Both the position numbers and the translations under genes were made by a program. DNA of 31,651 nucleotides from the NCBI GenBank assembly GCA_027002475.1, contig JALWZS010000001.1:1-31651 (forward strand). The letters run 5' to 3'. The notes beneath the pieces were generated by a model, which ran no database searches, was not told where the DNA came from, and saw nothing but the letters and a program-made list of their open reading frames with translations. Source of the DNA: a bacterium (GTDB lineage: Bacteria > Patescibacteriota > 4484-211 > GCA-002791395). Shown here in pieces: positions 3,956 through 31,651 of the stretch; position 1 is the stretch's first letter, and each line of letters begins with the position of its first letter.

Positions 3956-4023
3956 AATCTAATTGTAGCAGTCGATTTAAGAGCGAATCTCTTAAACTGC
4001 TTAATATATGTTAGGATGAAAAC

Positions 4024-12283: not shown

Positions 12284-12288
12284 GCGAC

Positions 12289-12807: not shown

Positions 12808-12873
12808 ACTTAATAGTATACTGCTAGAACCTAAAACATTGTCAATAGCTAAATTTATGGTTATATTTAATAT

Positions 12874-13134
12874 ATGGATCTTGGGCTTAAAATTTTGATG
12901 TTTTTTGTTTTCGTATCATTGGGTTTAATTTCATTTATCATGACAGATCTTATTAGCAAGTTGTGGGGGAATACGTTGATTGCACACGAAGGTACCTTAA
13001 GGAAGGTACCATTTTTCGGAATGTTTACAAGGAGTTTTATATTTTGGTTCGAAAAAGGTTCTGGGGATATGTTAGTGAGATTTATGGGGGCGGTGTGTAT
13101 CTTCTTAGGGCTATTGGTGTTTGTTATTTTTTAG
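12874..13134 (+). CDS. Small hypothetical membrane protein
   Basis: 86 aa with two hydrophobic segments and an ATG start. No recognisable family. Confidence 0.35.
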   Translation: MDLGLKILMFFVFVSLGLISFIMTDLISKLWGNTLIAHEGTLRKVPFFGMFTRSFIFWFEKGSGDMLVRFMGAVCIFLGLLVFVIF

Positions 13135-16236: not shown

Positions 16237-16295
16237 CTTCTAACTTAATTCCGTAAAGCTTTTGCGGTAGTACCGTAGTGGTATCATTCATAAAG

Positions 16296-17189: not shown

Positions 17190-18075
17190 GAGTAACTGGG
17201 TAAAGATTGTAGCGATTACTACTCTTATTGCGATTGTTCTTGTTGCCATAGTTTCTTTTTATGGATGGTATAAACTGCATGAGCTTTTGCATGTACACAT
17301 TGCTCCAGGAGACAAAACACCAAGCGATTACGGGCTAACTTACGAAGGTTACAGTTTTAAGTCTCTTGATGACATAGATCTTGCAGCTTGGTATGTTCCA
17401 GTAGAAAATCCTAAAGCAGTTATTATTATTGCACATGGCTATAACGATTCTGGGAAAGTTGAGTTTTTACCGTACGCGAGATTCTTACACGATAATGGCT
17501 ATGCTTCTTTTCTTTTAGACCTTCGGGCATTTGGTTATAGCAGTGGCAACCAAGTTAGTATTGGAACTAAAGAGTGGCAAGATGTGGTGGCTGCGTATGA
17601 CTTTGTGCGAGATAACTTAGTTGACTCCAATGTGTCTGTGGGGTTTTTAGGTAAATCGCTAGGTGCTGCAACGGTTGTTATAGCTAATGGATACACGGGT
17701 AAAGGGGACTTTGTGATTGCTGAGGTCCCTTATGCACATTTTGTGGGATTGTTTGAACCACAAATGAAGGAGCGAGGATACTCAGCTGTTCTTATGCCGT
17801 TTTTAAAGATTGCAATGTATTTTGAACTAGGCTTTGGTTACACAAAGTTTGAGCCAATCAAAATGGCAAAGAATATAACGGTGCCGCTTTTGGCAATTAG
17901 TGCGCAGTACGATGAGTCTGTATATCCAACAGATGCAAAGGAAATATACGAGACTGCTAAAGGAGAGAAAGTGTATTGGTTTGCACCATCTGGACATAAC
18001 GTTTACATAGATCTATCAGAAGAGTATAAAAACAAAGTAACAGATTTCCTTGATACGTACGTTGCAAAAGATTGA
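17182..18075 (+). CDS. Alpha/beta-fold hydrolase with an N-terminal TM anchor
   Basis: IIIAHGYNDSG and GKSLGAA. The 8-nt ATGATTAA overlap with the preceding gene places the two in one operon. Confidence 0.7.
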   Translation: MIKSNWVKIVAITTLIAIVLVAIVSFYGWYKLHELLHVHIAPGDKTPSDYGLTYEGYSFKSLDDIDLAAWYVPVENPKAVIIIAHGYNDSGKVEFLPYARFLHDNGYASFLLDLRAFGYSSGNQVSIGTKEWQDVVAAYDFVRDNLVDSNVSVGFLGKSLGAATVVIANGYTGKGDFVIAEVPYAHFVGLFEPQMKERGYSAVLMPFLKIAMYFELGFGYTKFEPIKMAKNITVPLLAISAQYDESVYPTDAKEIYETAKGEKVYWFAPSGHNVYIDLSEEYKNKVTDFLDTYVAKD

Positions 18076-18179
18076 TCCATTTTAAAGCTTTGCGCCAACA
18101 CGTTTGGGGCTATAGGGTATAATTGATCCAACTTAGAACCTTTTCATTTTTTCTGCTTCTCTCACTAAGGAGGTGAGAA

Positions 18180-19109
18180 ATGTGGCTTGTAGTCATTGTA
18201 ACTCTAGTCCTCCTTGTGGGAGGACTTTTGGGTAGCGCATGGTTTCTTTTGCGTTACCTGATTTACGGGGAGTGGAGAGGAGGCCGCTGGTCTCCCAAAG
18301 ACTTTGGGCTCGATGGGGAATGGATTGAGTTCAAGTCTTTGGATGGTAGCATAATCCACTCCTATCGGGTCTCTCCTGATGAGCCCACTGCCTGGGTTGT
18401 GATAGCCCACGGTTTTAACCCCACCGGCGGCTTTGTGGGTGCGGCTGAATTTTGGCCGTATGCCAAAAAGTTCGTTGGTGCCGGGTACGGGGTTCTGGTC
18501 TTAGACCTACCCGGCTTTGGGCTATCTCCTCGGCGCGCTCGAGGATACCGTCTTGGTTTCCTCGAGTGGTGGGACGCAGTTGCTGCGTATGAGTTCTTGC
18601 GATTTGAGCTTAAGATCGACTTGCCGGTTGGTCTTTTTGCTAAATCGGCTGGAACTCCAGCAGCTATCATTGCCGCTGCCCAAGGATGTGCTGACTTTGT
18701 AGTGTTAGAGTCAGCAATTGCATCCTTTCGGTCGCTCATGGTTGCGCAGTTGCAGTACCATGGGCTACCGCGGATGCTCGCGCTCCCGTTGGCAGCAGTG
18801 TTGGATCTTGTTTGGCGATATGGGTTTAATCACAGCGGGGTGATTGACCCAATAGATGTCGCCCGCGGGATTGGCGTTCCAATCCTCTTCCTTCGGGGTG
18901 GTCAAGATCCTGAGGTCCTGGAAGAGGACACGGTTTTCCTTGCTGAGGAAATTGGGCGCTTGGCAACTGTGAGGTACTTTGCAGCTGCTGGGCACAACAT
19001 CCTCAGACTCAATGGGGAGCCGGCGCACCTCATTAATAAGGAGGAGGCGAAAAAGGCATGGGCGGATACCTTTGCCTTTTTAAGAAACGTAACAACTGGG
19101 AGGCGGTAG
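18180..19109 (+). CDS. Alpha/beta-fold hydrolase, a high-GC paralogue of 17182..18075
   Basis: VVIAHGFNPTGG and AKSAGTPAA are homologous to the neighbouring gene, but GC is about 53-60% and the sequence is rich in Arg, Ala, Gly and Trp. It has a perfect SD (AAGGAGGTGAGAAATG) and a GGGTATAAT -10-like element upstream. Confidence 0.8.
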   Translation: MWLVVIVTLVLLVGGLLGSAWFLLRYLIYGEWRGGRWSPKDFGLDGEWIEFKSLDGSIIHSYRVSPDEPTAWVVIAHGFNPTGGFVGAAEFWPYAKKFVGAGYGVLVLDLPGFGLSPRRARGYRLGFLEWWDAVAAYEFLRFELKIDLPVGLFAKSAGTPAAIIAAAQGCADFVVLESAIASFRSLMVAQLQYHGLPRMLALPLAAVLDLVWRYGFNHSGVIDPIDVARGIGVPILFLRGGQDPEVLEEDTVFLAEEIGRLATVRYFAAAGHNILRLNGEPAHLINKEEAKKAWADTFAFLRNVTTGRR

Positions 19110-19121
19110 CTGCCGCCTCCC
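19098..19121. terminator. GC-rich hairpin shared by convergent genes
   Basis: GGGAGGCGG-tagctg-CCGCCTCCC. It contains the stop codons of both the +strand hydrolase and the -strand rlmD-like gene. Confidence 0.45.
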
Positions 19122-20452
19122 TAGCAAATTCTAGGGATTTCTCTGTTCTTTTTTGTTAGTAAAGTTACTAGTTCTACATGAGGAGTATGTGGAAACATAT
19201 CAATGCCTCGCATCTTTTTTACTTCGTATATTTTCTGTAATGTCTGCATATCACGACTAAAGTTTTTAAAGTTGCAGGAGACATATATAAGGTTATCGGG
19301 TTGAAGAGTTACGAGTTGTGAGAGTGCAGTTTTACGAAGACCTGAGCGAGGTGGGTCAAGAATTACTAAATTTGGATTTAACTCACTCCAATCATAATCT
19401 TCGCTTGGCATAGCAATAAAAGTTGCATTTGTGTTGTTGAGTTTATTGTTTTCTTTCGCATCTTCAATTGCATCTTTAACGATTTCTACTCCAATTGTGT
19501 TGGCGTTAAACTTATCGGCAAGCGGAATGGTGAAAAAGCCGCTGCCGGAATATAGATCGAGGATGGTGATGGGGGTAGTGGGTTGGAGAGTTGTAGTGTT
19601 GGAGTGTTGGGGACTTGGAGAGTTGGAAAGTTGGAGTGTTTCGGGGAGATCGTTTCGTTGATTCTCGCCTCGCGATGACGTGGCTGTATCGGATGGATTT
19701 GTGGATTTGTCATTGCGAGCGAAGCGTGGCAATCTTATTGCCGTTTCGGCGAATTCTAAAACGGTATCCATTAAAAGTTTTGCCGCGTGAGAGTTAGTTT
19801 GAAAAAAAGCGTTGGGCGTTATTTTATATTTGTAACCGTTTATCTCCTCAATAATATAACCCTTTCCCAAGATTATATGAACTTCTCCGCCATGAGAAAC
19901 GTCAGATGTGGTTTTGTTGATTGAGTGGATCAGGGTTGCGAGTATAGAGTTACGGGTTACGAGTTTAGATAAGTTGGATAATGCTTTTGTCAGTTGCTCG
20001 TTTTCGCTATCGTCTTTTGGTTGACTTGTTACGATTGTAATCATTGATTCGCCGGTAGTTGTTGTTCTAATTACTGCGTAGCGAAGCAAGCCATGGTGAT
20101 ATTTTCTATCAAAAAAAGTTAGTCCTGCGTTTTGTGCCCAATCTCTTACGATATGAAAAAGCTCTTCTATTTTTTCATCAGAGATAAAACATGTGTGATT
20201 ATCAATAACTCGCCACCATTTTCCTTTTTGCCGCAATCCTACGCGTCCTTCAAAATCAATAACAAAGTCCATACGGTTTCGGTAGTGACTAGTCTTAGGA
20301 GAGGGGAGTATTTCTTTTAGTTGTAGGTCAAGTTTATGCAATTTAAAGCTAAAGTTTATTTCATTGACCTTCTGCTGGAGTTGCTTTTCGTATGGAATAT
20401 GAGACCAGCTACAAGAGCCGCATACTTCTTTGTTTGGACATAAACTTTGCAT
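19121..20452 (-). CDS. rlmD: RumA/RlmD-family RNA (uracil-5-)-methyltransferase with an internal low-complexity insertion
   Basis: N-terminal Cys cluster CPNKEVCGSCSW, SAM motif ILDLYSGSGFF, and VILDPPRSGL and YVSCNF catalytic motifs. About 60 aa of repeat-derived sequence sit between the central and methyltransferase domains. Confidence 0.75.
   Translation of the reverse strand: MQSLCPNKEVCGSCSWSHIPYEKQLQQKVNEINFSFKLHKLDLQLKEILPSPKTSHYRNRMDFVIDFEGRVGLRQKGKWWRVIDNHTCFISDEKIEELFHIVRDWAQNAGLTFFDRKYHHGLLRYAVIRTTTTGESMITIVTSQPKDDSENEQLTKALSNLSKLVTRNSILATLIHSINKTTSDVSHGGEVHIILGKGYIIEEINGYKYKITPNAFFQTNSHAAKLLMDTVLEFAETAIRLPRFARNDKSTNPSDTATSSRGENQRNDLPETLQLSNSPSPQHSNTTTLQPTTPITILDLYSGSGFFTIPLADKFNANTIGVEIVKDAIEDAKENNKLNNTNATFIAMPSEDYDWSELNPNLVILDPPRSGLRKTALSQLVTLQPDNLIYVSCNFKNFSRDMQTLQKIYEVKKMRGIDMFPHTPHVELVTLLTKKNREIPRIC
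19560..19745. repeat. Intragenic GC-rich repeat insertion in the rlmD-like gene
   Basis: Tandem GTTGGAG-type low-complexity tract (19581-19640) plus the element GTCATTGCGAGCGAAGCGTGGCAATC (19709-19734). The same motif recurs in truB. Confidence 0.6.
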
Positions 20453-20500
20453 AAGCGTTAGGATAACATAAAACTATGCAGTGCCGTATAATCTTTAAGC

Positions 20501-21151
20501 GTGAGATATAAATATCTTCTTATTGATTGGGACGGGTGCGTAATAGATTCTTTGAATTTGTGGCGTAAGGAGATAAAAAAGCATCTAGCGGTTTTAGGAG
20601 TTGAAGCTTCTAATAAAGAGGTTGTCTCTAAAGCAATGGGAAAACGCGAGGCTGCTTTGAACTTTGGCTTAGATGTGGATTATAAAAGCTTTTGGGGACC
20701 AATAAGGAAAATTGTAGAAAGAGAGATTGCTAATGTCCCGTATTTACCTGAAGTTGAAGATACACTTAAAAAACTTTATGAAAACGGACACAAAATGGGC
20801 GTTATTACATCGAGTGCAAGAGGGGTTTTTAATGTGGGTTTTAAAGGAAGATCGGTAGCTAAGTACTTTGATGCAACTGTTACTGCTTCGGATGTTAAGA
20901 ATTTAAAGCCGGATCCTGAGGCAGTTAACTTATTGATGTCAAAATTGGGCGCTAGTCGAGATGAAAGTCTCATTATTGGAGATTCGCCACATGATATTGG
21001 GGCAGGTAAAAATGCTAATGTTGATACTTGTCTTTTTTATCCCAAACAAAATCATTCTTTTTATAAATATGAAGATTTGCTTGCAACCGAGCCAACATTT
21101 TTAATTGAACAATTTTCAGACTTGCTTGATGTAGTTGGGGGTGGAGTATAA
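20501..21151 (+). CDS. HAD-superfamily hydrolase (phosphatase-like)
   Basis: Motif I LIDWDG, motif IV GDSPHDIGAG and the motif III Lys. GTG start. Confidence 0.7.
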   Translation: MRYKYLLIDWDGCVIDSLNLWRKEIKKHLAVLGVEASNKEVVSKAMGKREAALNFGLDVDYKSFWGPIRKIVEREIANVPYLPEVEDTLKKLYENGHKMGVITSSARGVFNVGFKGRSVAKYFDATVTASDVKNLKPDPEAVNLLMSKLGASRDESLIIGDSPHDIGAGKNANVDTCLFYPKQNHSFYKYEDLLATEPTFLIEQFSDLLDVVGGGV

Positions 21152-21161
21152 TCAAAAAGAT

Positions 21162-22166
21162 ATGCTATATAGGACGCTTGGCAAAACAGGGCTTAAAGTA
21201 GCAGAGGTCGGTATGGGGACTTGGCAACTAGCCGGAGATGGTGGTATGTGGACGAAACCTGACGAGTCTGAAAGTCTAAGAACTTTACGTAAATACATTG
21301 AGCTTGGTGGGAATTTTTTGGATACAGCTTGGATTTATGGATATGATAGCAAAACAGGTAGGCATGCCTCCGAAGAACTAATTGGCAAGTTTTTAAAAGA
21401 GTTTGGTGTAAGAGACAAGGTAATCATTGCTAGCAAAATTGCGCCTAAGAATATGCACTGGCCAGCCAGACCCGGAATTCCAATCGATGAGGTTTTTCCT
21501 AATGATTGGATAAGGTCTTCTGTTGAAGATTCACTAAGAAGTCTACAAGTAGACTTTATTGATTTAATGCAGTTTCATGTGTGGCAGGATGATTTTGCTA
21601 ATCGTGATGAGTGGAAAGAGGAGATTAAACGTTTAACCAATGAAGGAAAAGTGAAACACTGGGGTGTGTCAATCAACGATTACCAGCCTGAAAATGTGCT
21701 AAATACTCTTGAGACGGGTGTAATTGAAACAGTGCAGTTTATTTTTAATATTTTTCACCAAAAACCTGAAGAAAAGCTATTGCCTTATGCTAAGGAGCAC
21801 AACATTGGATTGATTGCTCGCGTACCACTAGATGAAGGTGGCCTTTCAGGAAAGTTCACACTTGATACGGTTTTTCCTGAAGGAGATTTTCGGAGTTGGT
21901 ACTTTGGTGGGGATAACTTGAAAGAACTCGTAAAAAGAACTAACAAGCTAAAAAAGATTATGGATGGTGAAGCCAAAACTTTAGTTGAGTTAGCACTTCG
22001 GTGGATTTTAACGCATGAAGAAGTATCAACTGTGATTCCAGGAATGAGAAAAGTTGAATATGCAGAGCAAAACACTGCCATTTCTGATGGGCGTAAACTC
22101 TCTGACGCTTTAATGAAAGAGCTAAAAAAGCACTCTTGGGAACGCAATTTTTATAAAGTGTTTTAA
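21162..22166 (+). CDS. Aldo/keto reductase
   Basis: MLYRTLGKTGLKVAEVGMGTW N-terminus. ATG at 21162 is preferred over the in-frame TTG at 21135, which overlaps the HAD gene. Confidence 0.75.
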   Translation: MLYRTLGKTGLKVAEVGMGTWQLAGDGGMWTKPDESESLRTLRKYIELGGNFLDTAWIYGYDSKTGRHASEELIGKFLKEFGVRDKVIIASKIAPKNMHWPARPGIPIDEVFPNDWIRSSVEDSLRSLQVDFIDLMQFHVWQDDFANRDEWKEEIKRLTNEGKVKHWGVSINDYQPENVLNTLETGVIETVQFIFNIFHQKPEEKLLPYAKEHNIGLIARVPLDEGGLSGKFTLDTVFPEGDFRSWYFGGDNLKELVKRTNKLKKIMDGEAKTLVELALRWILTHEEVSTVIPGMRKVEYAEQNTAISDGRKLSDALMKELKKHSWERNFYKVF

Positions 22167-22248
22167 AACTGTGAGATCTTTGTTGACTCCTTGATATGAC
22201 TATTCTTGTAAGATTGTGCTCCTATCTGTTGGTGTAAAATAAATAACG

Positions 22249-22992
22249 ATGCCTAAGACGATACTTATTACTGGGTCAAGTCGGGGAATTGGTGGAGCTA
22301 CTGCACGGCTAGCTCACAAGCGTGGCTATCAGGTAATTGTTCATGGCAAAACAGATTCTGACGAACTAAACAATATTCATAATGAACTTTCTGGTTCAAT
22401 AAAAACGTTTTTTGATGTTCGAGATAAAAAGGAGGTTGAGAGCGCTATAAATAAGGTTTTGCAGCAGGTTGGCAACATTGAGATCTTAGTTAATAACGCT
22501 GGTATCGCTCGTAATTTTGTTAAGAATATAAATGAGGTTAGTGATGAAAATGCAATTGAGGAATGGGAAGTAAACGTTTTAGGAATAATTCATTGCGTTC
22601 AAGCTGTTGTGCCCAACATGCTTGAACAAGGACACGGTAGTATTGTCAACATTGCATCAATTAAGGGTTACCCAGAGATGGCTACGATGAGTACATTTAC
22701 TTACTCGGCAACTAAATCTGCTGTTATGTCTATTACAAAAAGCTTGGCAAAAGAGTATTCTCCAAAGGGGGTTCGAGTGAATGCAGTCGCTCCCGGATAT
22801 ACCGAGACTGAAGTTGTAAAGAGTTGGGATCCTAAAGCAAGAGAGCGTGTAGATAATGGGATTTTATTAAATCGATTGGCGTCTCCTACCGAAATTGCAA
22901 AGTCAGTTATGTTTTTAGCCTCAGATGATGCCAGTTATATTACTGGCACAGTTTTGCTGGCCGATGGTGGGTATATGCTTAAAGGTAAGTAA
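22249..22992 (+). CDS. Short-chain dehydrogenase/reductase (SDR, FabG-like)
   Basis: TGSSRGIG Rossmann motif, NNAG and YSATK catalytic motifs. Confidence 0.85.
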   Translation: MPKTILITGSSRGIGGATARLAHKRGYQVIVHGKTDSDELNNIHNELSGSIKTFFDVRDKKEVESAINKVLQQVGNIEILVNNAGIARNFVKNINEVSDENAIEEWEVNVLGIIHCVQAVVPNMLEQGHGSIVNIASIKGYPEMATMSTFTYSATKSAVMSITKSLAKEYSPKGVRVNAVAPGYTETEVVKSWDPKARERVDNGILLNRLASPTEIAKSVMFLASDDASYITGTVLLADGGYMLKGK

Positions 22993-23862
22993 TTACTTTT
23001 CTCCTGTTGTAAGGTTATAGTGGAAAAGGTCGGGGTGTTTTAATGCCCATCCAATTAATTCTGCCACAACTGTAGTATGTCTAAACTTTTTTTGAAGGTT
23101 AAATGTTTTAACAAGGGGATATATAGAACTAGCCAGTTTATAAATTCGTTCAAATGATGGGCGAACATAGTCGTCTAGTTCTTCATGTGTAACGTTTCTA
23201 AATCCTGCTTCTTGCATAATGGTTGGCAAGGTCCCATGCCGTAATTCAGGTAGTGCGAATAAGGACGATAGTTCGACCACTCGCTTTAATGATTCCTGGA
23301 AGTTTGAGTATTCTTCTTCGGATAATGTCGACTTAATTTGTTCGTCAGGGGCAATTGAGTAATCAAATACTGCAATTTTGCCATTTGGTTTAAGTAGCCG
23401 GTGCATTTCATAAACGGTTTGATAAAGCATATATGAATGTTGGATACTCTCCATCATATAAATCTTATCGAAGTGGTTATCGTCAAAGCTTGTATGCGTA
23501 AAATCTTCGATTAGAAACTGTGTCTTGTCTTCAACATTTAGTTTTTGAGCAAGGGCTTCCGCCTTTTCTTGCTCTTGTGGGACAATAGTTATGCCAACAA
23601 CATAACATCCTACTTGTTTAGCGATTCTGCATGCCATCGTTCCTTGACCGCATCCAGCTTCTAATACCATGTCGCCTTCTTTTAATGAAAGCGTTTTGAT
23701 TGCGAGCTGTTCCATTTCTAAAACGGCTTCTCGTTCGGAAATATCTGCTCGCTGATTAGGATAATAGCCAAAGTGCCGAGTTCCTCCAGTGAGTTTGTTG
23801 TAACCAAGAATGGACTCAATGTTGGAGTACTGTGAAACTATCTGTTTAACTTTATCGTTCAC
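22993..23862 (-). CDS. Class I SAM-dependent methyltransferase
   Basis: Motif I VLEAGCGQG and motif post-II KPNGKIAV. The substrate is unknown. Confidence 0.7.
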   Translation of the reverse strand: MNDKVKQIVSQYSNIESILGYNKLTGGTRHFGYYPNQRADISEREAVLEMEQLAIKTLSLKEGDMVLEAGCGQGTMACRIAKQVGCYVVGITIVPQEQEKAEALAQKLNVEDKTQFLIEDFTHTSFDDNHFDKIYMMESIQHSYMLYQTVYEMHRLLKPNGKIAVFDYSIAPDEQIKSTLSEEEYSNFQESLKRVVELSSLFALPELRHGTLPTIMQEAGFRNVTHEELDDYVRPSFERIYKLASSIYPLVKTFNLQKKFRHTTVVAELIGWALKHPDLFHYNLTTGEK

Positions 23863-24035
23863 AACAACTTTATTATATGCTATTTTAGTCCTAGATGTGG
23901 TTAATTGATGTTTTGCTAAACCCTGTTGTTGTAGTTGGTGTAATTATCTTAATTGTAAACACTAAACTAAGAGCTAAGCTCATAGAGAAAGTAAGGCTTG
24001 TTCTGTCAGGAGCCACAGATGTTACAATAAAAGGG

Positions 24036-24866
24036 ATGAACAGTTTTGGATTAAAACTTATTGCGGCAGTGATTGTATTAGTTGTGATCGGAGCGATTGC
24101 CCTTCGGTTCTTAGTTGTAATTCCGGCTGGGTTTACAGGGGTATATGTTTTGTTTGGGAAAGTTTCACCTAATGAGTTGCACTCAGGGATAAATTTTGTA
24201 AATCCCTTGGGAAAGGTCATAAAAATGAGTACTCGGACAGAGCAATATACGATGAGCATTGCAAATGCCGAGGGACAACGTTTAGGGGACGATAGCATTT
24301 CTGCACTAACTAACGAGGGGCTTAATGTGAAACTCGATATTACTGTTCTTTATCACTTGGATGAAGACAAGGCTGATGAGATATATAAAAATGTTGGGCT
24401 TAACTTTGTAGAGAAGGTGATTCGCCCTTCAATCCGTTCGATTATTCGCGAAGAAGTAGCAAAGTATTCTGCTAAAGAGATATATTCAGACAAAAGAGAG
24501 GAGCTAAGTATCCGTATTATGGAAAAGCTTGAAGCAGACTTAAAAAATAGAGGCATTGTTGTAGAAGACGTTTTGCTTAGGAATGTACAACTTCCGGCTC
24601 AACTTACAAAAAGCATTCAAGATAAATTAACGGCAGAGCAGGAAGCACAAAAGTATGACTTCGTTTTAGATAAGGAGAGAAAAGAGGCTGAAAGAAAACG
24701 AATTGAGGCCAAAGGGCAACGTGATTCTCAACAGATAATTAATGAGAGTTTGACCGATAGATATCTTGAGTACTTATACATCCAGTCGCTAAAAGATAGG
24801 GAAGGTACGATTTATGTGCCTACAAATCCTGATAACGGTCTGCCAATGTTTAAAAACATTCCGTAA
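24036..24866 (+). CDS. SPFH/Band 7 (prohibitin/HflC-like) membrane protein
   Basis: One N-terminal TM, then an SPFH core and a coiled-coil region (EAQKYDFVLDKERKEAERKRIEAKG). The ATG at 24036 has an AAAAGGGA RBS. The longer ORF starting at 23895 is an alternative. Confidence 0.65.
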   Translation: MNSFGLKLIAAVIVLVVIGAIALRFLVVIPAGFTGVYVLFGKVSPNELHSGINFVNPLGKVIKMSTRTEQYTMSIANAEGQRLGDDSISALTNEGLNVKLDITVLYHLDEDKADEIYKNVGLNFVEKVIRPSIRSIIREEVAKYSAKEIYSDKREELSIRIMEKLEADLKNRGIVVEDVLLRNVQLPAQLTKSIQDKLTAEQEAQKYDFVLDKERKEAERKRIEAKGQRDSQQIINESLTDRYLEYLYIQSLKDREGTIYVPTNPDNGLPMFKNIP

Positions 24867-24878
24867 GGTTGTTGCTAA

Positions 24879-25730
24879 ATGATTACTGCGCTTTATAAAC
24901 CCTTGGGAATTTCTACGCATTCCTTTGTAAAAAAGTACGGAGATTTATTGGGTCAAAAAGTTACGCATACAGGTTCACTAGATCCCATGGCTGAAGGGAT
25001 TGTAGTAGTGCTTACTGGAGATGACAGGTTTAAAAAGGAATTACTTAGCGATGTTGAGAAAGAGTATGAGTTCGAAATTTTATTAGGCTTCAAAACTGAT
25101 TCATGGGATTTGTTGGGATTAGTTGAAGGGGTTGAGCGTTTAAGAGTTAGAGAGTTGAAGAGTAGGCGAGTTAGAGAGTTGGAGGGTGTGTTGCCTGAGT
25201 TTGTGGGAACGTATGAGCAGGTAATTCCAAAGTTTTCTGCAAAAAGAATAAATGGGGAAAGCTATTTTGATAAAGCTAAAAGAGGGGAGATCTGGGAGCA
25301 AGGGGTGCAAAGTGTTAGTGTCAAAGAGTTGCAAGTTTTAGAGAGTTGGCAGGTTGGCATGTACAGCTTGCAGGAAGAAATTCTTTCTAGGATTAGTAAG
25401 GTCAGAGGAGACTTTAGACAAGAAGAGATTATAAAGAGATGGGGTGACGTCATTGCGAGGAGCAAAGCGACGTGGCAATCTAGCGAAGATGGGAATAATG
25501 TGGATTGCCACGAGAGTTCCGCGCACATCTCTGCCAATGACGTTTGTGTAATTGTGAAACTGCGAGCTGTTACTTCAAAACGATTTTATATTCGGGGATT
25601 GGTACGTGATATTTCTAACAAAACTAATCTTCCGATGACGACTTTTTCTATAAAGCGGATAAGACATGGTGATTACTCAATTGATAATTTAAGTGCAAGT
25701 ACTAATGACAACTTGGGTAAAGAATTGTAA
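24879..25730 (+). CDS. truB: tRNA pseudouridine(55) synthase TruB with a repeat-derived internal insertion
   Basis: HTGSLDPMAEGIVVV contains the catalytic Asp. The insertion includes VIARSKATWQSSEDG... Confidence 0.75.
   Translation: MITALYKPLGISTHSFVKKYGDLLGQKVTHTGSLDPMAEGIVVVLTGDDRFKKELLSDVEKEYEFEILLGFKTDSWDLLGLVEGVERLRVRELKSRRVRELEGVLPEFVGTYEQVIPKFSAKRINGESYFDKAKRGEIWEQGVQSVSVKELQVLESWQVGMYSLQEEILSRISKVRGDFRQEEIIKRWGDVIARSKATWQSSEDGNNVDCHESSAHISANDVCVIVKLRAVTSKRFYIRGLVRDISNKTNLPMTTFSIKRIRHGDYSIDNLSASTNDNLGKEL
25449..25541. repeat. Imperfect palindromic element inside truB
   Basis: Left arm GTCATTGCGAGGAGCAAAGCGACGTGGCAATC and right arm GATTGCCACGAGAGTTCCGCGCACATCTCTGCCAATGAC are inverted at their ends. 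The tandem GAGTTAGAGAGTTG(A/G)AG copies at 25144-25186 belong to the same gene. Confidence 0.6.
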
Positions 25731-25739
25731 AATAGAAAC

Positions 25740-26036
25740 GTGACTCTTGAAGAAATAAAGAAAGCTTTAGGTCCTGATACGAAATGGGATGCGTTTGAGT
25801 CATCCATAAGTAGGAATTTCAAGTTTGAAAACAAAAACGAAGCGCACGAGTTTATGGCACGGGTGGGTGAAGTTTCAGAACGATACCATAATAAGTCTGA
25901 TTTATTTGTACAAAGCTACAATAATATTAAAGTGTTACTTACAACTGAGGCGATAAGTGACGTAACTATGCAGGATATCGAGATATCAAGGCGAATTGAC
26001 GAGATTTATGACGATATAGTTTCGAAAAGGGGGTGA
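25740..26036 (+). CDS. Pterin-4a-carbinolamine dehydratase (PCD/DCoH-like)
   Basis: FENKNEAHEFMARVGEVSERYHNKSD and LLTTEAISDVTMQD fit the PCD family. GTG start. Confidence 0.65.
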   Translation: MTLEEIKKALGPDTKWDAFESSISRNFKFENKNEAHEFMARVGEVSERYHNKSDLFVQSYNNIKVLLTTEAISDVTMQDIEISRRIDEIYDDIVSKRG

Positions 26037-26042
26037 TAAAAA

Positions 26043-26462
26043 GTGGAAGAAGAAAAGACTTTAAACGAAGAGGCAAAGGAGGCTCAGCCACAACAAGAGC
26101 AAACCGCAGAGCAGGCTAGCGGAACTGCTACGCCAGCGGCTACACCAAATGCAAAGACCGGTAAGAACACAGGTATGGCAATAGTTGCGTACTTTTTGTT
26201 CTTTGTACCGATGCTAACAGGTGATTTGAAGGATCCATTTGTAAAGTTCCATACTAACCAGGCATTGGTGCTATTCATAGTTGATGTTGTTGCATGGATT
26301 CTAGGGATAATATTTAGTGCTGTTACGTTAGGCCTAGGAGCACTTTTGATGCCACTTATTTGGTTATTCATATTTGTTCTTTGGGTTATGGGTATTATCA
26401 ATGCGGCTAAGGGTGATATGAAACCATTACCGCTTATTGGAGGAATTACTATCCTAAAGTAA
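26043..26462 (+). CDS. DUF4870-like small membrane protein
   Basis: A disordered N-terminus, then DPFVKFHTNQALVLFI and TM helices. GTG start preceded by GGGGGTGA. Confidence 0.6.
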   Translation: MEEEKTLNEEAKEAQPQQEQTAEQASGTATPAATPNAKTGKNTGMAIVAYFLFFVPMLTGDLKDPFVKFHTNQALVLFIVDVVAWILGIIFSAVTLGLGALLMPLIWLFIFVLWVMGIINAAKGDMKPLPLIGGITILK

Positions 26463-26477
26463 GAACAGCAACTGACT

Positions 26478-26535
26478 AAGAGCGGGGATCGTGAGTCTAT
26501 ACTGTTGTATAGATAGGGTGAACCGCTCTTTTCTT
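26478..26535 (+). terminator. Compound hairpin with a T-tract downstream of the DUF4870 gene
   Basis: Outer stem AAGAGCGG/CCGCTCTT encloses an inner hairpin CTATAC-TGTT-GTATAG and is followed by TTCTT. Confidence 0.4.
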
Positions 26536-26540
26536 ATGGA

Positions 26541-26571
26541 TAAAAGAAAAGGGGCACCCGGTTAGACCGGG
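26541..26571 (-). terminator. Rho-independent terminator for the high-GC SPFH gene
   Basis: 6-bp GC stem CCCGGT/ACCGGG with a 3-nt loop. On the minus strand it is followed by TTTTCTTTT, 24 nt past the stop codon. Confidence 0.6.
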
Positions 26572-26594
26572 CACCCCACGCAACAGTAGGAGAC

Positions 26595-27836
26595 TTAAGG
26601 GGTTGGTTGTGGAGTCGGCGTTGAGGTGGGTAGCGCTTGCTGGAAGAAAAACGGCGGTTGCGCCCCGGCTTCATTCGTGAAAAGTGTGCTGGGCACATCC
26701 CCTTGCCAACGCTGAATGGCTTCGTAAGTGAGAATGTTGGGGTCCGATGCGATTTGCTGGCGGATTAGCTCCAGGGCTTTAGCATCAGCTTGTGCCCTTA
26801 AAATCCGCGCCTGGCTATCGCCTTCGGCCTTCAAAATCTCTGCCTTCTTTTGCGCTTCAGCGGCGGCCACCTTGGCCTTGCCTTCATTGGCGGCTTTTTC
26901 TTCGAGCTGGGCCGCGATCTCTACGTCCATTTGAGCGGCCTCGAGCTGCAGCCGTTTCTCGGCTTGGGTTTTCAGCTGCGCCTCGAATTCCGGTGAGTAG
27001 TTGAAGAAACTGATAGCAACATCAGTAACTTCAACCAGGCCGCCAAGCTTTGCTTGCAGCTCGGTCTTGATCTCATCCTGAGCTTCTTTCTTGTGCACGC
27101 CAAAGTAATCATATGGATGTGCACCTGAAACTGATTTGACCGCATTGATAGCGGCTTCTTTGACCAGGACCTTTTCGTAATCAGGCCCATATCGCAAGTC
27201 AAGGAGCTTCATGGATTCGATTGGGACTGAGAGCTGCGTTAGCTCAAGCTCTTTACCTTCCTCGACGGGCAGTCGGAACCAAATCACAACATCCGGGTAA
27301 ATCTCCGGTCGACCAGTTGTGTTGGTGTCCGCTTGGATGTCGTAGATCTTCATTGGGCGAATCCGTGTCGTGTAGCGATTCACTCGAGACACGAACGGTG
27401 TTGCCCAGTGGGTTCCAGGACCAACAACTCGGTATCCAACGTTTGGGAACGACTGTCGGATGACGCCGACATTCGTTGGGGTCACGACCTGCAGCCCCGC
27501 GAAGAACAGATACCCGGCAATGCCCACCATCGCGAACACCTTTGCCCAGCGGTGGCGGCTTTTCGAGCCAGCTTCGGGGTATCCTTCGAGGAACAGATCG
27601 TAGTAACCCCAAACAAGTGAGACCAGAATGATTAGCAACATGACCCCCTGCAATGCGTCTGGCCATGCAAAGGCGCTGCCGTCATCCTGGAACTCAAAGG
27701 TAGTGGTGACCGTCTCTCGGTCGACTGGCACTGCTTTCCCTGCTTCTGGTGTGGGGGTTGCTGGTGCACATGCCATTAAGGCGGTGGCGAGCAAACCGAC
27801 AACAAGGATGAGCAGGACAATTTTTCGAAGTTTCAT
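26595..27836 (-). CDS. SPFH/Band 7 family protein (lipoprotein-like N-terminus), in a high-GC insert
   Basis: LLATALMAC lipobox-like signal, an SPFH core and a long Ala/Glu/Lys coiled coil. GC is about 55-58%, against about 38% in the flanks. Perfect SD GGAGGT. Confidence 0.75.
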   Translation of the reverse strand: MKLRKIVLLILVVGLLATALMACAPATPTPEAGKAVPVDRETVTTTFEFQDDGSAFAWPDALQGVMLLIILVSLVWGYYDLFLEGYPEAGSKSRHRWAKVFAMVGIAGYLFFAGLQVVTPTNVGVIRQSFPNVGYRVVGPGTHWATPFVSRVNRYTTRIRPMKIYDIQADTNTTGRPEIYPDVVIWFRLPVEEGKELELTQLSVPIESMKLLDLRYGPDYEKVLVKEAAINAVKSVSGAHPYDYFGVHKKEAQDEIKTELQAKLGGLVEVTDVAISFFNYSPEFEAQLKTQAEKRLQLEAAQMDVEIAAQLEEKAANEGKAKVAAAEAQKKAEILKAEGDSQARILRAQADAKALELIRQQIASDPNILTYEAIQRWQGDVPSTLFTNEAGAQPPFFFQQALPTSTPTPQPTP

Positions 27837-27884
27837 TGTTTTACCTCCAAAAGAGTGAAAAGAGTTGGTTTCATTGAGCAGTCT

Positions 27885-27934
27885 CCTTACTGCTACTGCA
27901 AAAACACGTAAATGTTCTTACAGTAGCAGTAGGG
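27885..27934. repeat. 14-bp inverted repeat just upstream of the high-GC SPFH gene
   Basis: CCTTACTGCTACTG ... CAGTAGCAGTAGGG with 13/14 complementarity and a 22-nt spacer. Confidence 0.4.
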
Positions 27935-28185
27935 AGGGTAACGGTAAGTGTAATGTGCGTTTGGGACAGCGTCGCTGGGGATTATACTGTAAAACATACG
28001 TTTCTGCAATAAATTGAGTAGGTGCTACTGTTACTTTTTATATGCCGATATATTTTTTATATCAACAATGTAAGATTTATACCATGCCCCAGGCGGAATG
28101 TCAACCTTATATTTTTAATATATCTGCAAGCTGGATATTGCTTGATTTATGCACAAATTATCAACATGTGGTATATAATATTTAT

Positions 28186-29055
28186 ATGAGGTTACGTGCT
28201 GCCCTAACTAAATTTATTAAGGAATTAGAAAATTTGAATTATCCAGAAACAACAATTCGTGGGTATGCGACTGATATAAAGCAATTCATTGAGTTTTTGC
28301 AGGATTTTAATGTAGAGGATATATCTACAGTTTCCCCAAAACATGCAGAATTATTTATTGAACGACTAGAGTCGGAAAATTATGCTCCCCGAAGTATCTC
28401 CAGGAAAATAAATGCGCTTAAGTTATTTGATAATTTTTTGTACGGGCAGGGGCTTATTAACGACCATTTTGCAAATGAGTTAAAACATCCTGAACAGGAA
28501 CAAAGAGAATTAAGAATTCTTTCAAGTGATGAGCTTGCAAAACTGCGTGAAGTTGTTGTAAACGATCTAAAGTATAGGGCGATTATAGAAACTTTGCTTC
28601 AAACCGGCATGGGAATAAGTGAGCTTGCTGGTCTTACTATCGATGATGTAGTTTTGGTTCCTGGTCCAAAATTTGGTGAGGTTCATATTCGAAACCGTAC
28701 TGGGCAGCGAGTTGTCCCAATAAATAATGCAATGGAAAAAGTGCTTGAGGAGTACTTAGAAATTCGTCCAGAATCTGAATCAAGGGCTCTTTTTGTTACT
28801 AAAAACGGCAAGCCTTTGCTTGAAAGAAATATTAGGAGAAAACTCAAAGAGTATTTTAAAAAGGCTGGAATTAATAATGTTATGGTGAATGATTTAAGGA
28901 ATACATTTATTGCCAATCAGCTAATGAAAGGAGTTTCTATCGGTAGAGTTGCATACCTTGTTGGCTATAAAAACATTAGCTCGCTAAACAAGTTTGTTAA
29001 AGCATTGGGAGATAAAATTAAAACACCTGACTACGGAGTGATTGAAGAAGTCTAG
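28186..29055 (+). CDS. Tyrosine-recombinase (phage integrase)-like protein, probably catalytically degenerate
   Basis: It has an N-terminal SAM-like core-binding domain and a C-terminal fold alignable to XerD, but the canonical Arg I, His II, His III and Tyr positions read G, N, Y and F. Only Arg II (DLR) is retained. Confidence 0.65.
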   Translation: MRLRAALTKFIKELENLNYPETTIRGYATDIKQFIEFLQDFNVEDISTVSPKHAELFIERLESENYAPRSISRKINALKLFDNFLYGQGLINDHFANELKHPEQEQRELRILSSDELAKLREVVVNDLKYRAIIETLLQTGMGISELAGLTIDDVVLVPGPKFGEVHIRNRTGQRVVPINNAMEKVLEEYLEIRPESESRALFVTKNGKPLLERNIRRKLKEYFKKAGINNVMVNDLRNTFIANQLMKGVSIGRVAYLVGYKNISSLNKFVKALGDKIKTPDYGVIEEV

Positions 29056-29846
29056 TCGGCTCGTTTGCTCCAATATTTCCACAGTGTCTCAAATGTTTCT
29101 CTTTCTGCTGCTGCGATCGTTTCGTCTTCTATTATGACTGCTTTTAAGTTGTCGTGTGATATAAACGTGACCTTATTTCCGTGAATGATTTTATCTACAT
29201 GGCTTACTTTTGACGTTTTATTACTCGGGGTTAGTATTATTTGTCGTTTCTCGCTTCCAAACTTTTCTTTGTACTCACGTGTCGCTGGCGTATCTTGGAG
29301 TAACTCACGGGTTTTTTGTCCGCGCAGGACTGACTCTTCTACATATTGTTTTAGATATTCTGGATCGTCGTCGAGCTTTAATTGAGTGTTAACATCTCCA
29401 TTGCACAGCCAAAGAGATTCTTCGGCGGCGAGTGTGTCGTATAGTGCAAAACGGAGGCCGCGTTCGCCCTTGTAAAAGCGAACCTTAGGCATGCCCGGCG
29501 TGTTAGAGTTATAAATGGATTCTAATTGCGGAAGCATTTTTTCTAGTGCTGCTGCGCTTTGTGTTAAGTCATTGAGCTTGTCTTTGGCGAGTTTCAATAA
29601 CTGTGAGGGTTCTGTTGGCGTGAAAAAGGTTTTCGTTTCTTCCTTAACGGATGAGACTAAGCCCATTTTTTGTAGGTCATTTAAAATCCCATAAACCGTG
29701 CTTCTTGGGACTTTGGCGTTTTTTGCAATTGCCGATGCTGGGGACTTCCCTAGTTCTAGGTTGGCCAAATAAACCTTGGCATGATTTTCGTCAAGCCCAA
29801 TTGTTTCTAGTGACTTAGTTATTTGTGTCGGCGCGTTCGACAACAT
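29052..29846 (-). CDS. TrmB-family transcriptional regulator
   Basis: N-terminal wHTH LGLDENHAKVYLANLELGKSPASAIAKNAKVPRSTVYGILNDLQKMGLV, followed by a TrmB-like C-terminal domain. Confidence 0.75.
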   Translation of the reverse strand: MLSNAPTQITKSLETIGLDENHAKVYLANLELGKSPASAIAKNAKVPRSTVYGILNDLQKMGLVSSVKEETKTFFTPTEPSQLLKLAKDKLNDLTQSAAALEKMLPQLESIYNSNTPGMPKVRFYKGERGLRFALYDTLAAEESLWLCNGDVNTQLKLDDDPEYLKQYVEESVLRGQKTRELLQDTPATREYKEKFGSEKRQIILTPSNKTSKVSHVDKIIHGNKVTFISHDNLKAVIIEDETIAAAERETFETLWKYWSKRAD

Positions 29847-29883
29847 AGTGCTTATATACTATCGCGTCGGTATTATATTGTCA

Positions 29884-30402
29884 ATGAAGGGAACGCGAGT
29901 CATTCTATACATGGCGGTATCTGCAAATGGTTACATCGCGGATTGCGATGGGGAGACGCCATGGACAACAGCAGAATGGAATAAATTTAAGGAAAAAGTA
30001 AACGAGATAGGGAACGTTTTAGTAGGTAGGAAAACGTATGAGCTTATGAAAAAGGATGGTACGCTAGCAGATATGCCCTACAAAAAGCTTTTTGTACTGA
30101 CTTCAAATAAGGATAAGTTTATGGATAATGAAGTATTATTTGTAAGTTCTATTAGCGACGCGATTAAAATCTTAACGAAAGAAAATCCTACGCAACTTTT
30201 AATTGCCGGTGGAGCTGCTGCTAATACAGCTGCGCTGAAAACTGGACTTGTTGATGAGATTATATTGGACATAGAGCCTATTCTTTTTGGGAATGGACTG
30301 TCGCTGTTCGAACTAAGTGATTATGTTAAGCGTTTGGAGCTTATAAATCTAGCACGCTATGGTGATAGTGGGGTGCAATTGCACTATGAAGTTTTAAAAT
30401 AA
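29884..30402 (+). CDS. Dihydrofolate-reductase-like (RibD C-terminal domain) protein
   Basis: VILYMAVSANGYIA and VGRKTYE, and a size typical of the family. ATG at 29884 is preferred over the longer ORF. Confidence 0.65.
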   Translation: MKGTRVILYMAVSANGYIADCDGETPWTTAEWNKFKEKVNEIGNVLVGRKTYELMKKDGTLADMPYKKLFVLTSNKDKFMDNEVLFVSSISDAIKILTKENPTQLLIAGGAAANTAALKTGLVDEIILDIEPILFGNGLSLFELSDYVKRLELINLARYGDSGVQLHYEVLK

Positions 30403-30439
30403 CACTTTATAGTTTTCCTTCCTATGCGTTTACTCCAGT

Positions 30440-30463
30440 ACTCCAGTGTACTGGAGTGTTTAT
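30440..30463 (+). terminator. Candidate terminator after the DHFR-like gene
   Basis: Stem ACTCCAG/CTGGAGT with a 4-nt loop, followed by GTGTTTAT. The T-tract is weak. Confidence 0.3.
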
Positions 30464-30506
30464 AAGAAGTTGGGTTTATTCTTACTAGATATTGGTGGAT
30501 TAAGTC

Positions 30507-30535
30507 TTGACGATACTTAGACTTGGATATATTCT
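30507..30535 (+). promoter_or_regulatory. Sigma70-like promoter upstream of pyk
   Basis: TTGACG at 30507-30512, then TATATT or TATTCT after a 15-17 nt spacer, about 27 nt upstream of the pyk ATG. Confidence 0.3.
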
Positions 30536-30561
30536 ACTAGCCTGGTAAATTAATTAAGTAC

Positions 30562-31651
30562 ATGTCAAAAACAAAGATTGTTGCAACAATTGGTCCTGCA
30601 TCTGACTCCCCTGAACTTATCACCGAAATGATTCGCTCTGGCGTTAACGTTTTTCGATTTAACACAAAACACGCCGATGTAAAATGGCATAAAGAGCGCA
30701 TAAAATTGGTACGATCAATTTCTAAAAAGTTGAAGTCTCCGGTTGGAGTTATGATTGATCTACAAGGACCAGAGATTAGGATTGAGACTCCATACAAGCG
30801 TCCTCTCGCAATCAAAAAAGATGAAGAGGTTATATTTGCTCCTGAATTTATTAAAGGTAAAAAGGTTGTCAAACTAAAAGAGCGAGAAGTTTATGCTGCA
30901 GTTAACGAAGGTGACGTAATCTTAATCGACGATGGGTATAACGAGTTTGTTGTAACTGAGCGAGGGATTGATTTTATTACTACTCGTGCTCTTGATGATT
31001 ACGTGATTGGGCATAGGAAGAGTCTTAACATTCCAGGCGCGTTTATTGATATGCCCTCTTTGACCGAGCGGGACTTTGAATACTTGGACTTAGCTAAAGA
31101 AGAACCTGTTGATTTTGTGGCATTATCGTTTGTTCGAAGTCGTGAAGACGTGCTTGTTTTAAAGCACCAGCTCCAAGCTCGTAAAATTCGTGCAGGAATT
31201 ATCTCGAAGGTTGAGGGGGCTCACGCAATTGAGAATATTGATGAAATTATTGAGATTACTGATGCAGTAATGGTTGCCCGCGGGGATTTGGGAGTTGAAA
31301 TTCCAATCGAGCAGATAACTTACTGGCAGAAAAAGATAATTAATAAGTGTAGGACCGCTGCCAAACCTGTGATTACTGCAACAGAGATGCTTCAGTCGAT
31401 GATTGAGCATTCTAGACCAACAAGGGCAGAGGTTAGCGATGTCGCAAACGCTGTATTTGATGGGACAGATGCTGTTATGCTTTCTGGTGAGTCTGCGAGC
31501 GGAAAGCACCCCGTAAAAGCTGTTAGCATGATGGATAGGATTTGCGAGTTTAATGAGGATAAAAGCTTTGTTCCAACTCTCCCGGAAGAAAAGGTAGCCA
31601 ATCAAACAAAGGTTGTAACGCGAGCTGTTATGGATATCGTCTCGATGGGAA
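30562..31651 (+). CDS. pyk: Pyruvate kinase, 3' partial (runs off the window; not in the ORF track)
   Basis: My own translation from ATG 30562 gives [14 protein letters not shown]...[10 protein letters not shown]...[12 protein letters not shown]. The minus-strand ORFs listed here are shadow frames of it. Confidence 0.9.

Follow-up and report, generated by a model that had tools for sequence, protein, structure and literature searches.

A compositionally foreign SPFH lipoprotein gene in a variable slot of a Patescibacteria genome

How does a single GC-rich gene come to stand by itself among the housekeeping genes of a low-GC genome, and has the integrase-like gene next to it anything to do with its arrival? 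The question is raised by a minus-strand gene for an SPFH-domain lipoprotein on contig JALWZS010000001.1 (assembly GCA_027002475.1), in a stretch of 31,651 nucleotides (nt), here called the window, from a bacterium of the Patescibacteriota. A sequence-only reading of the window had described the gene as a high-GC insert between a terminator and an inverted repeat, next to an integrase-like gene. We compared the locus with a sister genome, with other members of the protein family, and with known mobile and variable systems. The sister genome is NCBI contig JBPMZJ010000016 (GCA_054010915.1; L012 hereafter), which was found through a TruB protein at least 90% identical to that of the window. The features of the slot, in window coordinates, are the following.

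26043-26462, plus strand: native gene for a DUF4870 membrane protein, the left border of the slot, conserved in L012
up to 26529, plus strand: terminator hairpin of the DUF4870 gene, conserved in L012
26541-26577, minus strand: intrinsic terminator of the SPFH lipoprotein gene, with a 12-bp stem (26577-26551, nine G-C pairs) and a T-run (26550-26541)
26595-27836, minus strand: GC-rich coding sequence (CDS) of 413 amino acids, with a predicted lipoprotein signal (Cys23), two predicted transmembrane helices, an SPFH domain, a coiled coil and a C-terminal motif
27846-27851, minus strand: Shine-Dalgarno sequence GGAGGT, 6 nt before the ATG, conserved in L012
27883-27936, minus strand: inverted repeat, with 24-nt arms (27883-27906 and 27913-27936) that are 88% complementary and a 6-nt spacer
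28186-29055, plus strand: gene for a Xer-like tyrosine recombinase of 289 amino acids, a low-GC core gene outside the insert

The SPFH lipoprotein gene has a G+C content (GC) of 0.542, with 0.63, 0.41 and 0.59 at the first, second and third codon positions (GC1, GC2 and GC3), in a window whose mean GC is 40%. Among the 30 window genes examined, 28 have a GC of 0.35-0.43 (mean 0.393, standard deviation 0.019) and a mean GC3 of 0.34 (standard deviation 0.036); relative to these 28, the gene lies at z = 7.8 for GC and z = 6.9 for GC3, so that composition statistics bear out the single minus-strand high-GC gene of the sequence-only reading. It is atypical at all three codon positions and also in codon choice, with no AGA or ATA codon, more TTC than TTT, and a relative synonymous codon usage that runs against that of the host (r = -0.26). 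In windows of 100 nt, GC is 0.39-0.48 before about 26550, rises to 0.57-0.62 within about 26550-27800, and then drops to 0.40 and, past 28000, to 0.27-0.33. The rise starts at the terminator (about 26550) and stops within the CDS, some 60 nt from its 5' end, and the intergenic DNA upstream of the gene has a GC of 0.40 or less.

The borders were checked in other copies of the locus. In ENA, the window is part of a scaffold of 79 kb (JOHN19-1_SAMN10217877 scaffold_192; L001). In the Logan assembly of run SRR14510437, which is possibly from the same sample, a 5-kb contig matches positions 25453-30461 of the window at 99.96% identity, without gaps and across both junctions. The same junctions between flank and GC-rich CDS recur in L012, a different genome, and mis-assembly is therefore excluded. 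Against the ENA copy the window shows 3 differences over 15 kb (16595-31651), and against the Logan contig 2 over 5 kb; these may reflect strain micro-heterogeneity or different polishing. This is a real, sharply bounded and compositionally foreign single gene.

L012 has the gene order of the window from the histidine kinases to PGK, with flanks about 84% identical. Its interval between the DUF4870 and recombinase genes is occupied by a different gene (11715-13037, minus strand), which encodes 440 amino acids and has a GC of 0.515 and a GC3 of 0.55. Blastn homology between the two genomes breaks at 26609, about 15 nt from the stop codon of the SPFH lipoprotein gene, and resumes at 27824, 12 nt from its start. 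Kept around the swapped body are the DUF4870 terminator, the minus-strand terminator, the last four codons (QPTP, followed by the stop), the Shine-Dalgarno sequence, the inverted repeat, and the promoter region 28003-28185. The two slot proteins have only their C-terminal 80 or so amino acids in common (44% identity; hhalign probability 95.8%), and alignment of the two allele families by hhalign gave similarity in the signal peptide and the C terminus only, with no homology in the core domain. Both proteins match the phage family phrog_200, 'lipoprotein' (7e-29 for the window and 2e-13 for L012). The window protein is 35-44% identical to members of its family from other Patescibacteria lineages; since it is closer to these than to the L012 slot gene, one sister lineage at least, if not both, has had its coding body replaced, by what the alignments show to be a very distant or unrelated lipoprotein gene.

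The L012 allele itself is a phage-type lipoprotein gene, with three extra N-terminal hydrophobic helices in its product. The protein is 35-38% identical to gp65 of Bacillus phage G and to a lipoprotein on the faecal phage scaffold MT835676, and its Cys at residue 106 is aligned (alignment A5) with the lipobox Cys of those phage proteins; it has no match in Pfam or in the PDB, and a single-sequence AlphaFold model of it, with a mean confidence (pLDDT) of 49, was set aside. The sequence-only reading had proposed to look for presence or absence of the insert in relatives. No empty slot was found: the sole related genome, L012, has it filled by a different GC-rich gene. In a WWE3 relative (L026, 7598-8270) the Logan contig stops about 300 nt past the DUF4870 gene, at the expected slot, which could be an assembly break at a variable locus. 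Synonymous divergence (dS) between the window and L012 is a mosaic along the region, from 0.29 to more than 1.7, and this suggests frequent homologous recombination with diverged relatives. Across window positions 14959-30402, dS is about 0.3 for TruB and a tRNA methyltransferase, 0.4-0.9 for several genes, and above 1.7 for pterin dehydratase and for a second, native SPFH gene described below.

An unalignable CDS inside conserved signals and flanks points to replacement in place by homologous recombination. Our explanation, to which we give somewhat better than even chances, is a xenologous allele replacement through the conserved flanks that draws on a circulating gene pool. The slot lies between the DUF4870 gene and the housekeeping Xer-like gene of a WWE3/Microgenomates-like Patescibacteria genome; recombination through the flanks would have exchanged the coding body, and the expression signals on both sides have stayed. 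The pool of such genes would circulate mainly among Patescibacteria, perhaps among their phages, and the foreign composition would reflect that pool. The exposed location of the product suggests that diversifying selection, from phage or from host-cell contact, drives the turnover. Most detected transfers into Patescibacteria originate in other Patescibacteria (PMC12455944), in agreement with the near confinement of the SPFH lipoprotein family to this group.

The exposed location is a prediction from the protein itself. The N-terminal lipobox reads L-M-A-C, with Cys23 (MKLRKIVLLILVVGLLATALMA followed by the C), and is recognized by pattern judgement only; a Cys is found at this position in the family members P0001, P0002, P0003, P0006, P0007 and P0009, there is none in P0010, and P0008 is truncated at its N terminus. 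Two predicted transmembrane helices (about 58-82 and 92-114, with a basic loop between them) are followed by the SPFH domain (115-281), a long coiled-coil helix (282-364), and a C-terminal end with a W-x-G-x-V-P motif and a Pro/Thr tail. Pfam Band_7 (PF01145) matches residues 117-302 with 43.9 bits, above its gathering score of 23.6 (E = 3.4e-11). An AlphaFold (AF2) model built from the family alignment of eight sequences has a predicted local distance difference test score (pLDDT) of 71 overall and of 80-95 in the core; it contains N-terminal helices at 2-23, 58-82 and 92-114, an alpha/beta SPFH domain, and a single helix at 282-364. The lipobox-like signal, the SPFH core and the long coiled coil proposed in the sequence-only reading were all recovered in this way. 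The top Foldseek matches of the model in the PDB are human prohibitin, Escherichia coli HflK/C and erlin (E = 1e-13 to 1e-9; 3e-13 for prohibitin and 2e-12 for HflC; best entries 8rrh, 7vhq, 9o9z and 7wi3), and a profile search of PDB sequences returned the prohibitin, HflK/C and erlin families again. The equivalog cut-offs of the NCBIfam models for HflC and HflK were missed by a wide margin (22 bits against 134.4, and 20.1 against 159.4). Among the annotated neighbours there is no FtsH, NfeD or second adjacent SPFH gene, a few small open reading frames of the window being outside the scan. The protein belongs to a new small subfamily of SPFH lipoproteins.

As to topology, the signal peptide would be cleaved at Cys23 and the lipid anchor placed on the outer leaflet of the membrane. 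The first transmembrane helix would then run inward and the second outward, joined by the basic loop into a helical hairpin anchor; read from the sequence, residues K, R and H abound in this loop (83-98), in keeping with the positive-inside rule. With a lipid-modified Cys and a hairpin of two transmembrane helices, the SPFH and coiled-coil part is therefore predicted to lie outside the cytoplasmic membrane. By analogy with its structural relatives, the protein may assemble into a multimeric cage that organises or shields membrane proteins.

Upstream of the gene, in the region that it shares with the divergent recombinase gene, there are three further candidate signals.

27981-28009, minus strand: promoter-like site TTGCAG-17-TATAAT, identified by eye, about 45 nt upstream of the inverted repeat
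28076-28104, minus strand: promoter-like site TTGACA-17-TATAAA, identified by eye, directed towards the slot gene and inside the conserved segment 28003-28185
28150-28179, plus strand: promoter-like site TGCACA-18-TATAAT, which ends 7 nt before the ATG of the recombinase gene

The Shine-Dalgarno sequence noticed in the sequence-only reading is present as described, at 27851-27846. The GC-rich terminator is also there, with shifted coordinates (stem, then T-run, as listed above), and in L012 paired changes preserve its stem. The 14-bp inverted repeat of that reading is real and larger than thought, with the 24-nt arms given above. It is unique in the window, where 0.02 such repeats are expected by chance, and differs from L012 at a single position. 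Where the plus strand has two A.C mismatches, the minus strand has G.U pairs, and the L012 substitution turns an A-U pair of the minus strand into a G.U pair, so that pairing is kept on that strand alone. The minus-strand RNA of the repeat forms a hairpin with one unpaired position, in a leader of 124 nt that folds at -41 kcal/mol (z = -5.7). Because of this pairing on the minus strand only and of the folding, the repeat is most likely a 5' untranslated region (UTR) hairpin or an operator of the slot gene; its near-invariant sequence may leave room for protein binding. The leader of the recombinase gene (27995-28190) folds no better than shuffled sequences (z = -0.09), and an Rfam scan of the window gave no match.

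The intergenic segment 28003-28185 is strongly conserved in L012, while the flanks are about 84% identical. The TTGCAG-17-TATAAT site is specific to the window and lies in a spacer that is variable relative to L012. A motif, CAGTAGCA/TGCTACTG, occurs three times, at 27917-27927 and 27892-27902 within the repeat and at 28018-28028, about 100 nt off in the conserved leader; the TrmB-like regulator or the recombinase may bind there. The 11-nt inverted pair 27917-27927/28018-28028 flanks the variable spacer in the manner of an invertible promoter, a candidate that was rejected: neither orientation of the spacer aligns to L012 above shuffles, and in the Logan assembly the spacer has the same orientation as in the window. 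With a promoter, a 5' hairpin, a Shine-Dalgarno sequence, a CDS and an intrinsic terminator, the slot gene has the make-up of a self-contained monocistronic accessory gene, its promoters being consensus matches only.

The sequence-only reading had set the gene beside an integrase-like neighbour, with an implied coupling. The adjacency is as described; the coupling found no support. The start of the recombinase gene is most likely 28186, since family models align from about residue 9 of the product and a longer N-terminal extension is not protein-like and overlaps conserved promoter-like DNA; this places it 350 nt from the SPFH start, a little farther than the 330 bp or so first estimated. A promoter-like site that ends 7 nt before the ATG suggests that the mRNA is probably leaderless. 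The gene is low in GC (0.349-0.355) and syntenic in L012, where it likewise stands next to TrmB, DHFR, PK and PGK, with 85% amino acid identity and a dN/dS of 0.09. The product scores best with XerA (142 bits), XerC (130) and XerD (126), in each case below the cut-off (220, 335 and 330, respectively). Five other family loci have flanks of several kb (L003, L007, L010, L011 and L014), and in none of them does a recombinase lie near the SPFH gene. The sister-genome slot swap removes the recombinase as the vehicle; it is a bystander, and its link with the insert is coincidental.

Four kinds of element that could have tied the recombinase to the slot were considered. An integrase-borne genomic island does not fit a low-GC, syntenic recombinase, and the att-like or direct-repeat borders anticipated by the sequence-only reading were not found: there is no direct repeat across the borders of the SPFH gene, and no tRNA in the window. 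At 26454-26467, a 14-nt half-site resembles an arm of the repeat; it is not conserved in L012 and was taken as chance, which also disposes of an integrative mobile element exploiting Xer (IMEX) with a degenerate second site. A dif site of the replication terminus is contradicted by the GC skew, which stays positive over more than 10 kb to both sides of the repeat and does not switch there, and by the lack, as judged by eye, of dif consensus arms. An integron was rejected on the scores of the recombinase with the integron-integrase models (TIGR02249, 56.9 bits against 265; PRK15417, 31 against 435), and the 3' hairpin is a terminator common to both alleles. The repeats near distant Xer homologues are unrelated and uninformative, and no close relative of the recombinase was found among the GTDB species genomes.

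Three other parts of the window bear on the origin of the gene or on its surroundings.

18180-19109, plus strand: second GC-rich gene, for an alpha/beta hydrolase with an N-terminal transmembrane segment (GC 0.537, GC3 0.54)
23895-24866, plus strand: native HflC/prohibitin-like SPFH gene (GC 0.384), 86% identical in amino acids to its L012 orthologue
8533-11391, minus strand: gene for a protein of 952 amino acids, adjoining the PFOR subunit genes

The neighbours of the slot are housekeeping genes (TruB, pterin dehydratase, DHFR, PK, PGK, PFOR and hydrogenase). The native low-GC SPFH gene pointed out in the sequence-only reading is present and unrelated to the GC-rich one: BLASTP similarity between the two proteins is insignificant (E = 0.095), which indicates that they are no close paralogues. 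The 952-amino acid protein is a fusion of an ADP-forming acyl-CoA synthetase (CoA_binding, Succ_CoA_lig and ATP-grasp_5 domains) with a C-terminal reductase (FAD_binding_6 and NAD_binding_1).

We searched for relatives of the window allele in several collections. An exhaustive HMMER search of 1.84 billion representative proteins gave 7 proteins at E < 1e-30, with generic SPFH proteins from E = 8e-24; the members that carry a name come from Candidatus Roizmanbacteria and 'Patescibacteria group bacterium'. No relative was found in plasmids or in IMG/VR viral contigs, the only phage matches being remote ones to Stenotrophomonas phage (25% identity), and no family member was found in the GTDB species genomes. 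A scan of JGI metagenomes with TruB returned relatives at 35% identity only, with no usable slot. PADLOC gave one marginal and irrelevant match, and an anti-phage defence system was rejected as an identity for the locus. Our literature search found no report on SPFH proteins in Patescibacteria or on GC-rich genes in Patescibacteria genomes. The comparison of loci covered the DNA of nine family members (the window, L003, L004, L007, L008, L009, L010, L011 and L014).

Several of the observations made on these loci, and on the hydrolase gene, weigh against replacement from a circulating pool and are gathered here. The nearest relative among about 15 billion proteins is just 43-46% identical to the window protein, and no donor was found. 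Eight of the nine loci are GC-rich islands, 11-15.5 GC points above their low-GC contig; the sole uniformly GC-rich locus (L010, 64%), which also holds toxin-antitoxin genes, is among the more distant relatives (36% identity). Across the eight low-GC loci the GC of the gene follows that of the host (r = 0.87, p = 0.004, slope 0.84), with an offset of 13.3 ± 1.5 points, and in every low-GC locus with available upstream sequence the rise is limited to the CDS. Such tracking of the host and such a limit at the CDS are not expected from random transfers out of a fixed donor. Exchange at break points exactly at the ends of the CDS would, moreover, need donors with the same slot flanks, and the function of the protein is read only from predicted fold and topology.

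The hydrolase points in the same direction. Besides the query, a search of its family returned the L012 orthologue (3516-4445, 79% identical), a protein 65% identical to it and another, from WWE3, that is 47% identical. The WWE3 contig (L025, GC 0.456, hydrolase at 8175-9134) has the same order of genes (HisKA, Hydrolase_4, hydrolase, HAD), and the 47% amino acid identity of its hydrolase is comparable to the 34-56% of the neighbours. GC3 of the hydrolase gene is 0.54, 0.53 and 0.57 in the window, L012 and L025, respectively, against backgrounds of 0.34, about 0.33 and about 0.52. The gene thus looks vertically inherited and resident over the long term, yet GC-rich, so that some of the GC-rich genes here may have a cause other than recent transfer.

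In anatomy, the hydrolase gene has its own promoter-like site, a Shine-Dalgarno sequence AAGGAGG, a GC rise that does not extend beyond the CDS, and a 9-bp G+C hairpin that encloses its stop codon. In the low-GC SPFH loci with upstream sequence, the 250 nt upstream are likewise host-like and AT-rich, with promoter-like sites and a strong Shine-Dalgarno sequence, and most have a 3' hairpin terminator. Codon usage is anticorrelated with that of the host, and moderately similar among the two slot alleles (window and L012) and the L003 and L010 copies. At four-fold degenerate sites G and C are both raised, and the use of C-ending versus G-ending codons is inconsistent across family members; a signature of translational selection was rejected, no consistent optimal-codon pattern being found across the family. 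Other GC-rich single genes occur on family contigs (L003, 136-531; L007, 6891-8006; L014, 13614-14096 and 14231-14647); their products are an RNA-polymerase alpha-CTD-like protein, one secreted protein, and two small ones that match nothing in Pfam. None was found in the unrelated Patescibacteria loci L016, L019 and L021-L023. The CDS-limited offset may come from an unsampled GC-richer reservoir, from a turnover too fast for amelioration, or from selection for a GC-rich CDS. The sequence-only reading had held that closest homologues in low-GC relatives, with the same codon usage, would speak for a native gene. The closest homologues do lie in low-GC Patescibacteria, but their GC is likewise above that of the genomes that carry them.

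The last of these causes leads to the first rival explanation, which we hold to be unlikely, namely that the SPFH family is resident and that its CDS, like that of the hydrolase, is actively held about 13 GC points above the genome by nucleotide or mRNA selection, possibly on the basis of a long-lived, nuclease-resistant mRNA between 5' and strong 3' stem-loops. It would account for a near-constant offset that follows host GC across eight lineages, for a rise limited to the CDS between flanks that are host-like, AT-rich and promoter-bearing in every locus, for a family nearly confined to low-GC Patescibacteria contigs, and for a hydrolase that is syntenic at 47% amino acid identity with its GC3 (0.53-0.57) above that of its hosts (0.34-0.52); both GC-rich genes also have strong Shine-Dalgarno sequences and G+C-rich terminal hairpins. 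Against it, the slot allele has demonstrably been exchanged between sister genomes and is not simply vertical, the joint increase of G and C at four-fold sites with no optimal-codon pattern looks like a different mutational background, and other Patescibacteria loci that we looked at hold no such genes. To our knowledge, no mechanism that gives an increase of this size (25 points of GC3) has been established for bacterial protein genes. We are equally doubtful of the broader proposal that Patescibacteria possess a class of genes (the SPFH family, the hydrolase, and the L003, L007 and L014 genes) whose CDS have stood some 13 GC points up for very long, independently of recent transfer.

A recent transfer from a GC-richer organism outside Patescibacteria, for instance the bacterial host of a presumed episymbiont, seems less probable still. 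General relations between codon position and GC predict the observed GC1, GC2 and GC3 for a native gene of a genome of about 54% GC, and one family member does lie on the uniformly 64% GC contig with toxin-antitoxin genes; but all of the 7 members found at E < 1e-30 among 1.84 billion proteins are on low-GC contigs except that one, the well-sampled GC-rich phyla should give relatives closer than the best identity of less than 46%, and the flanking DNA holds no donor-type sequence. Site-specific capture, in which the neighbouring tyrosine recombinase would use the 24-nt repeat as its core site and the gene would be a cassette, in the manner of IMEX/dif or of integrons, we consider quite improbable. 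The geometry of inverted arms around a 6-bp spacer is that of a tyrosine-recombinase core site, the repeat hardly varies between two genomes with a 16% difference in their flanks, and it lies, like attI in integrons, between a divergent recombinase gene and a variable gene. The site is present in one copy only, however, with a half-site at the other border that is not conserved; about 45 nt of conserved UTR and the Shine-Dalgarno sequence separate it from the swapped segment, which ends on its 3' side at the stop codon, before a conserved terminator. The score with the integron-integrase model (56.9 bits against 265), the five other loci with no recombinase near the gene, and the lack of a GC-skew switch also speak against capture, and the sole change in the repeat leaves it paired on the minus strand only, a pattern that fits an RNA hairpin. 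An assembly chimera of reads from two organisms has only the sharp GC change in its favour and is hardly worth considering: the second assembly is identical across both junctions, and the same junctions are present in L012, the pattern recurring in seven further loci from other samples.

The slot is a concrete, alignable case in which the gene for a predicted surface protein has been replaced in place within a housekeeping, syntenic region, and it shows that a bystander role is possible for an adjacent 'integrase'. The genomes of Patescibacteria are tiny, and these bacteria presumably live attached to other cells; genes for exposed membrane structures that are exchanged between their lineages are candidates for a role in host contact or phage resistance. 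The family-wide, CDS-limited offset and the resident hydrolase call for caution in reading GC islands here as recent insertions; with a long-resident hydrolase that is GC-rich, GC-richness is no safe clock for recent insertion in these genomes. An offset maintained by selection would, if true, be an unusual constraint on the composition of bacterial CDS, and a class of such genes would imply gene-specific selection on nucleotides or mRNA, e.g. for long-lived mRNAs bracketed by stem-loops in transcript-poor cells; alternatively, an offset held for so long would imply a GC-rich mobile reservoir still unseen.

Compared with known systems, the protein resembles HflK/HflC, prohibitin and erlin in its Band_7 match, SPFH1-SPFH2 fold, long coiled-coil helix and N-terminal membrane anchor, and HflK/C also in that its bulk is predicted to be extracytoplasmic. 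Unlike HflK/C, it has a lipobox and a two-helix hairpin instead of a single transmembrane helix, it is encoded by a single gene and not by a K/C pair, and it scores far below the equivalog cut-offs, in a tiny subfamily of 7 representatives. As an autonomous unit of promoter (by consensus match only), CDS and terminator, with a composition unlike that of its neighbours, the slot gene is reminiscent of phage morons, the more so as both alleles match phrog_200 'lipoprotein' and the L012 allele resembles gp65 of Bacillus phage G; unlike a moron, it lies outside any prophage, among housekeeping neighbours, and no relative was found on viral contigs or plasmids. The slot has in common with the XerS-difSL/IMEX system a Xer-like gene beside a conserved inverted repeat with a 6-nt spacer and an adjacent foreign gene, but it lacks a skew switch, a second site and (by eye) dif-like arms, and the repeat does not bound the swapped segment. 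With integrons it shares a tyrosine recombinase gene and a variable single gene that are divergently transcribed on either side of a palindromic site, whereas the recombinase fails the IntI models, the 3' hairpin is the terminator of both alleles and not an attC, and there is only one cassette-like gene. Hypervariable surface loci, such as O-antigen and capsule clusters or the central regions of flagellin genes, are replaced through conserved flanks and have atypical GC. The slot is like these in its conserved flanks, its discrete unalignable alleles in one position, the atypical composition of all its alleles and its product predicted to be surface-exposed; it differs in that it is a single gene, with high and not low GC, with breaks at the ends of the CDS and with two alleles seen. 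The SPFH slot falls within known kinds, those of SPFH scaffolds and of replaceable accessory loci, and is no new type of system; what sets it apart is the swapping of alleles within a conserved expression frame, together with a GC offset found across the family.

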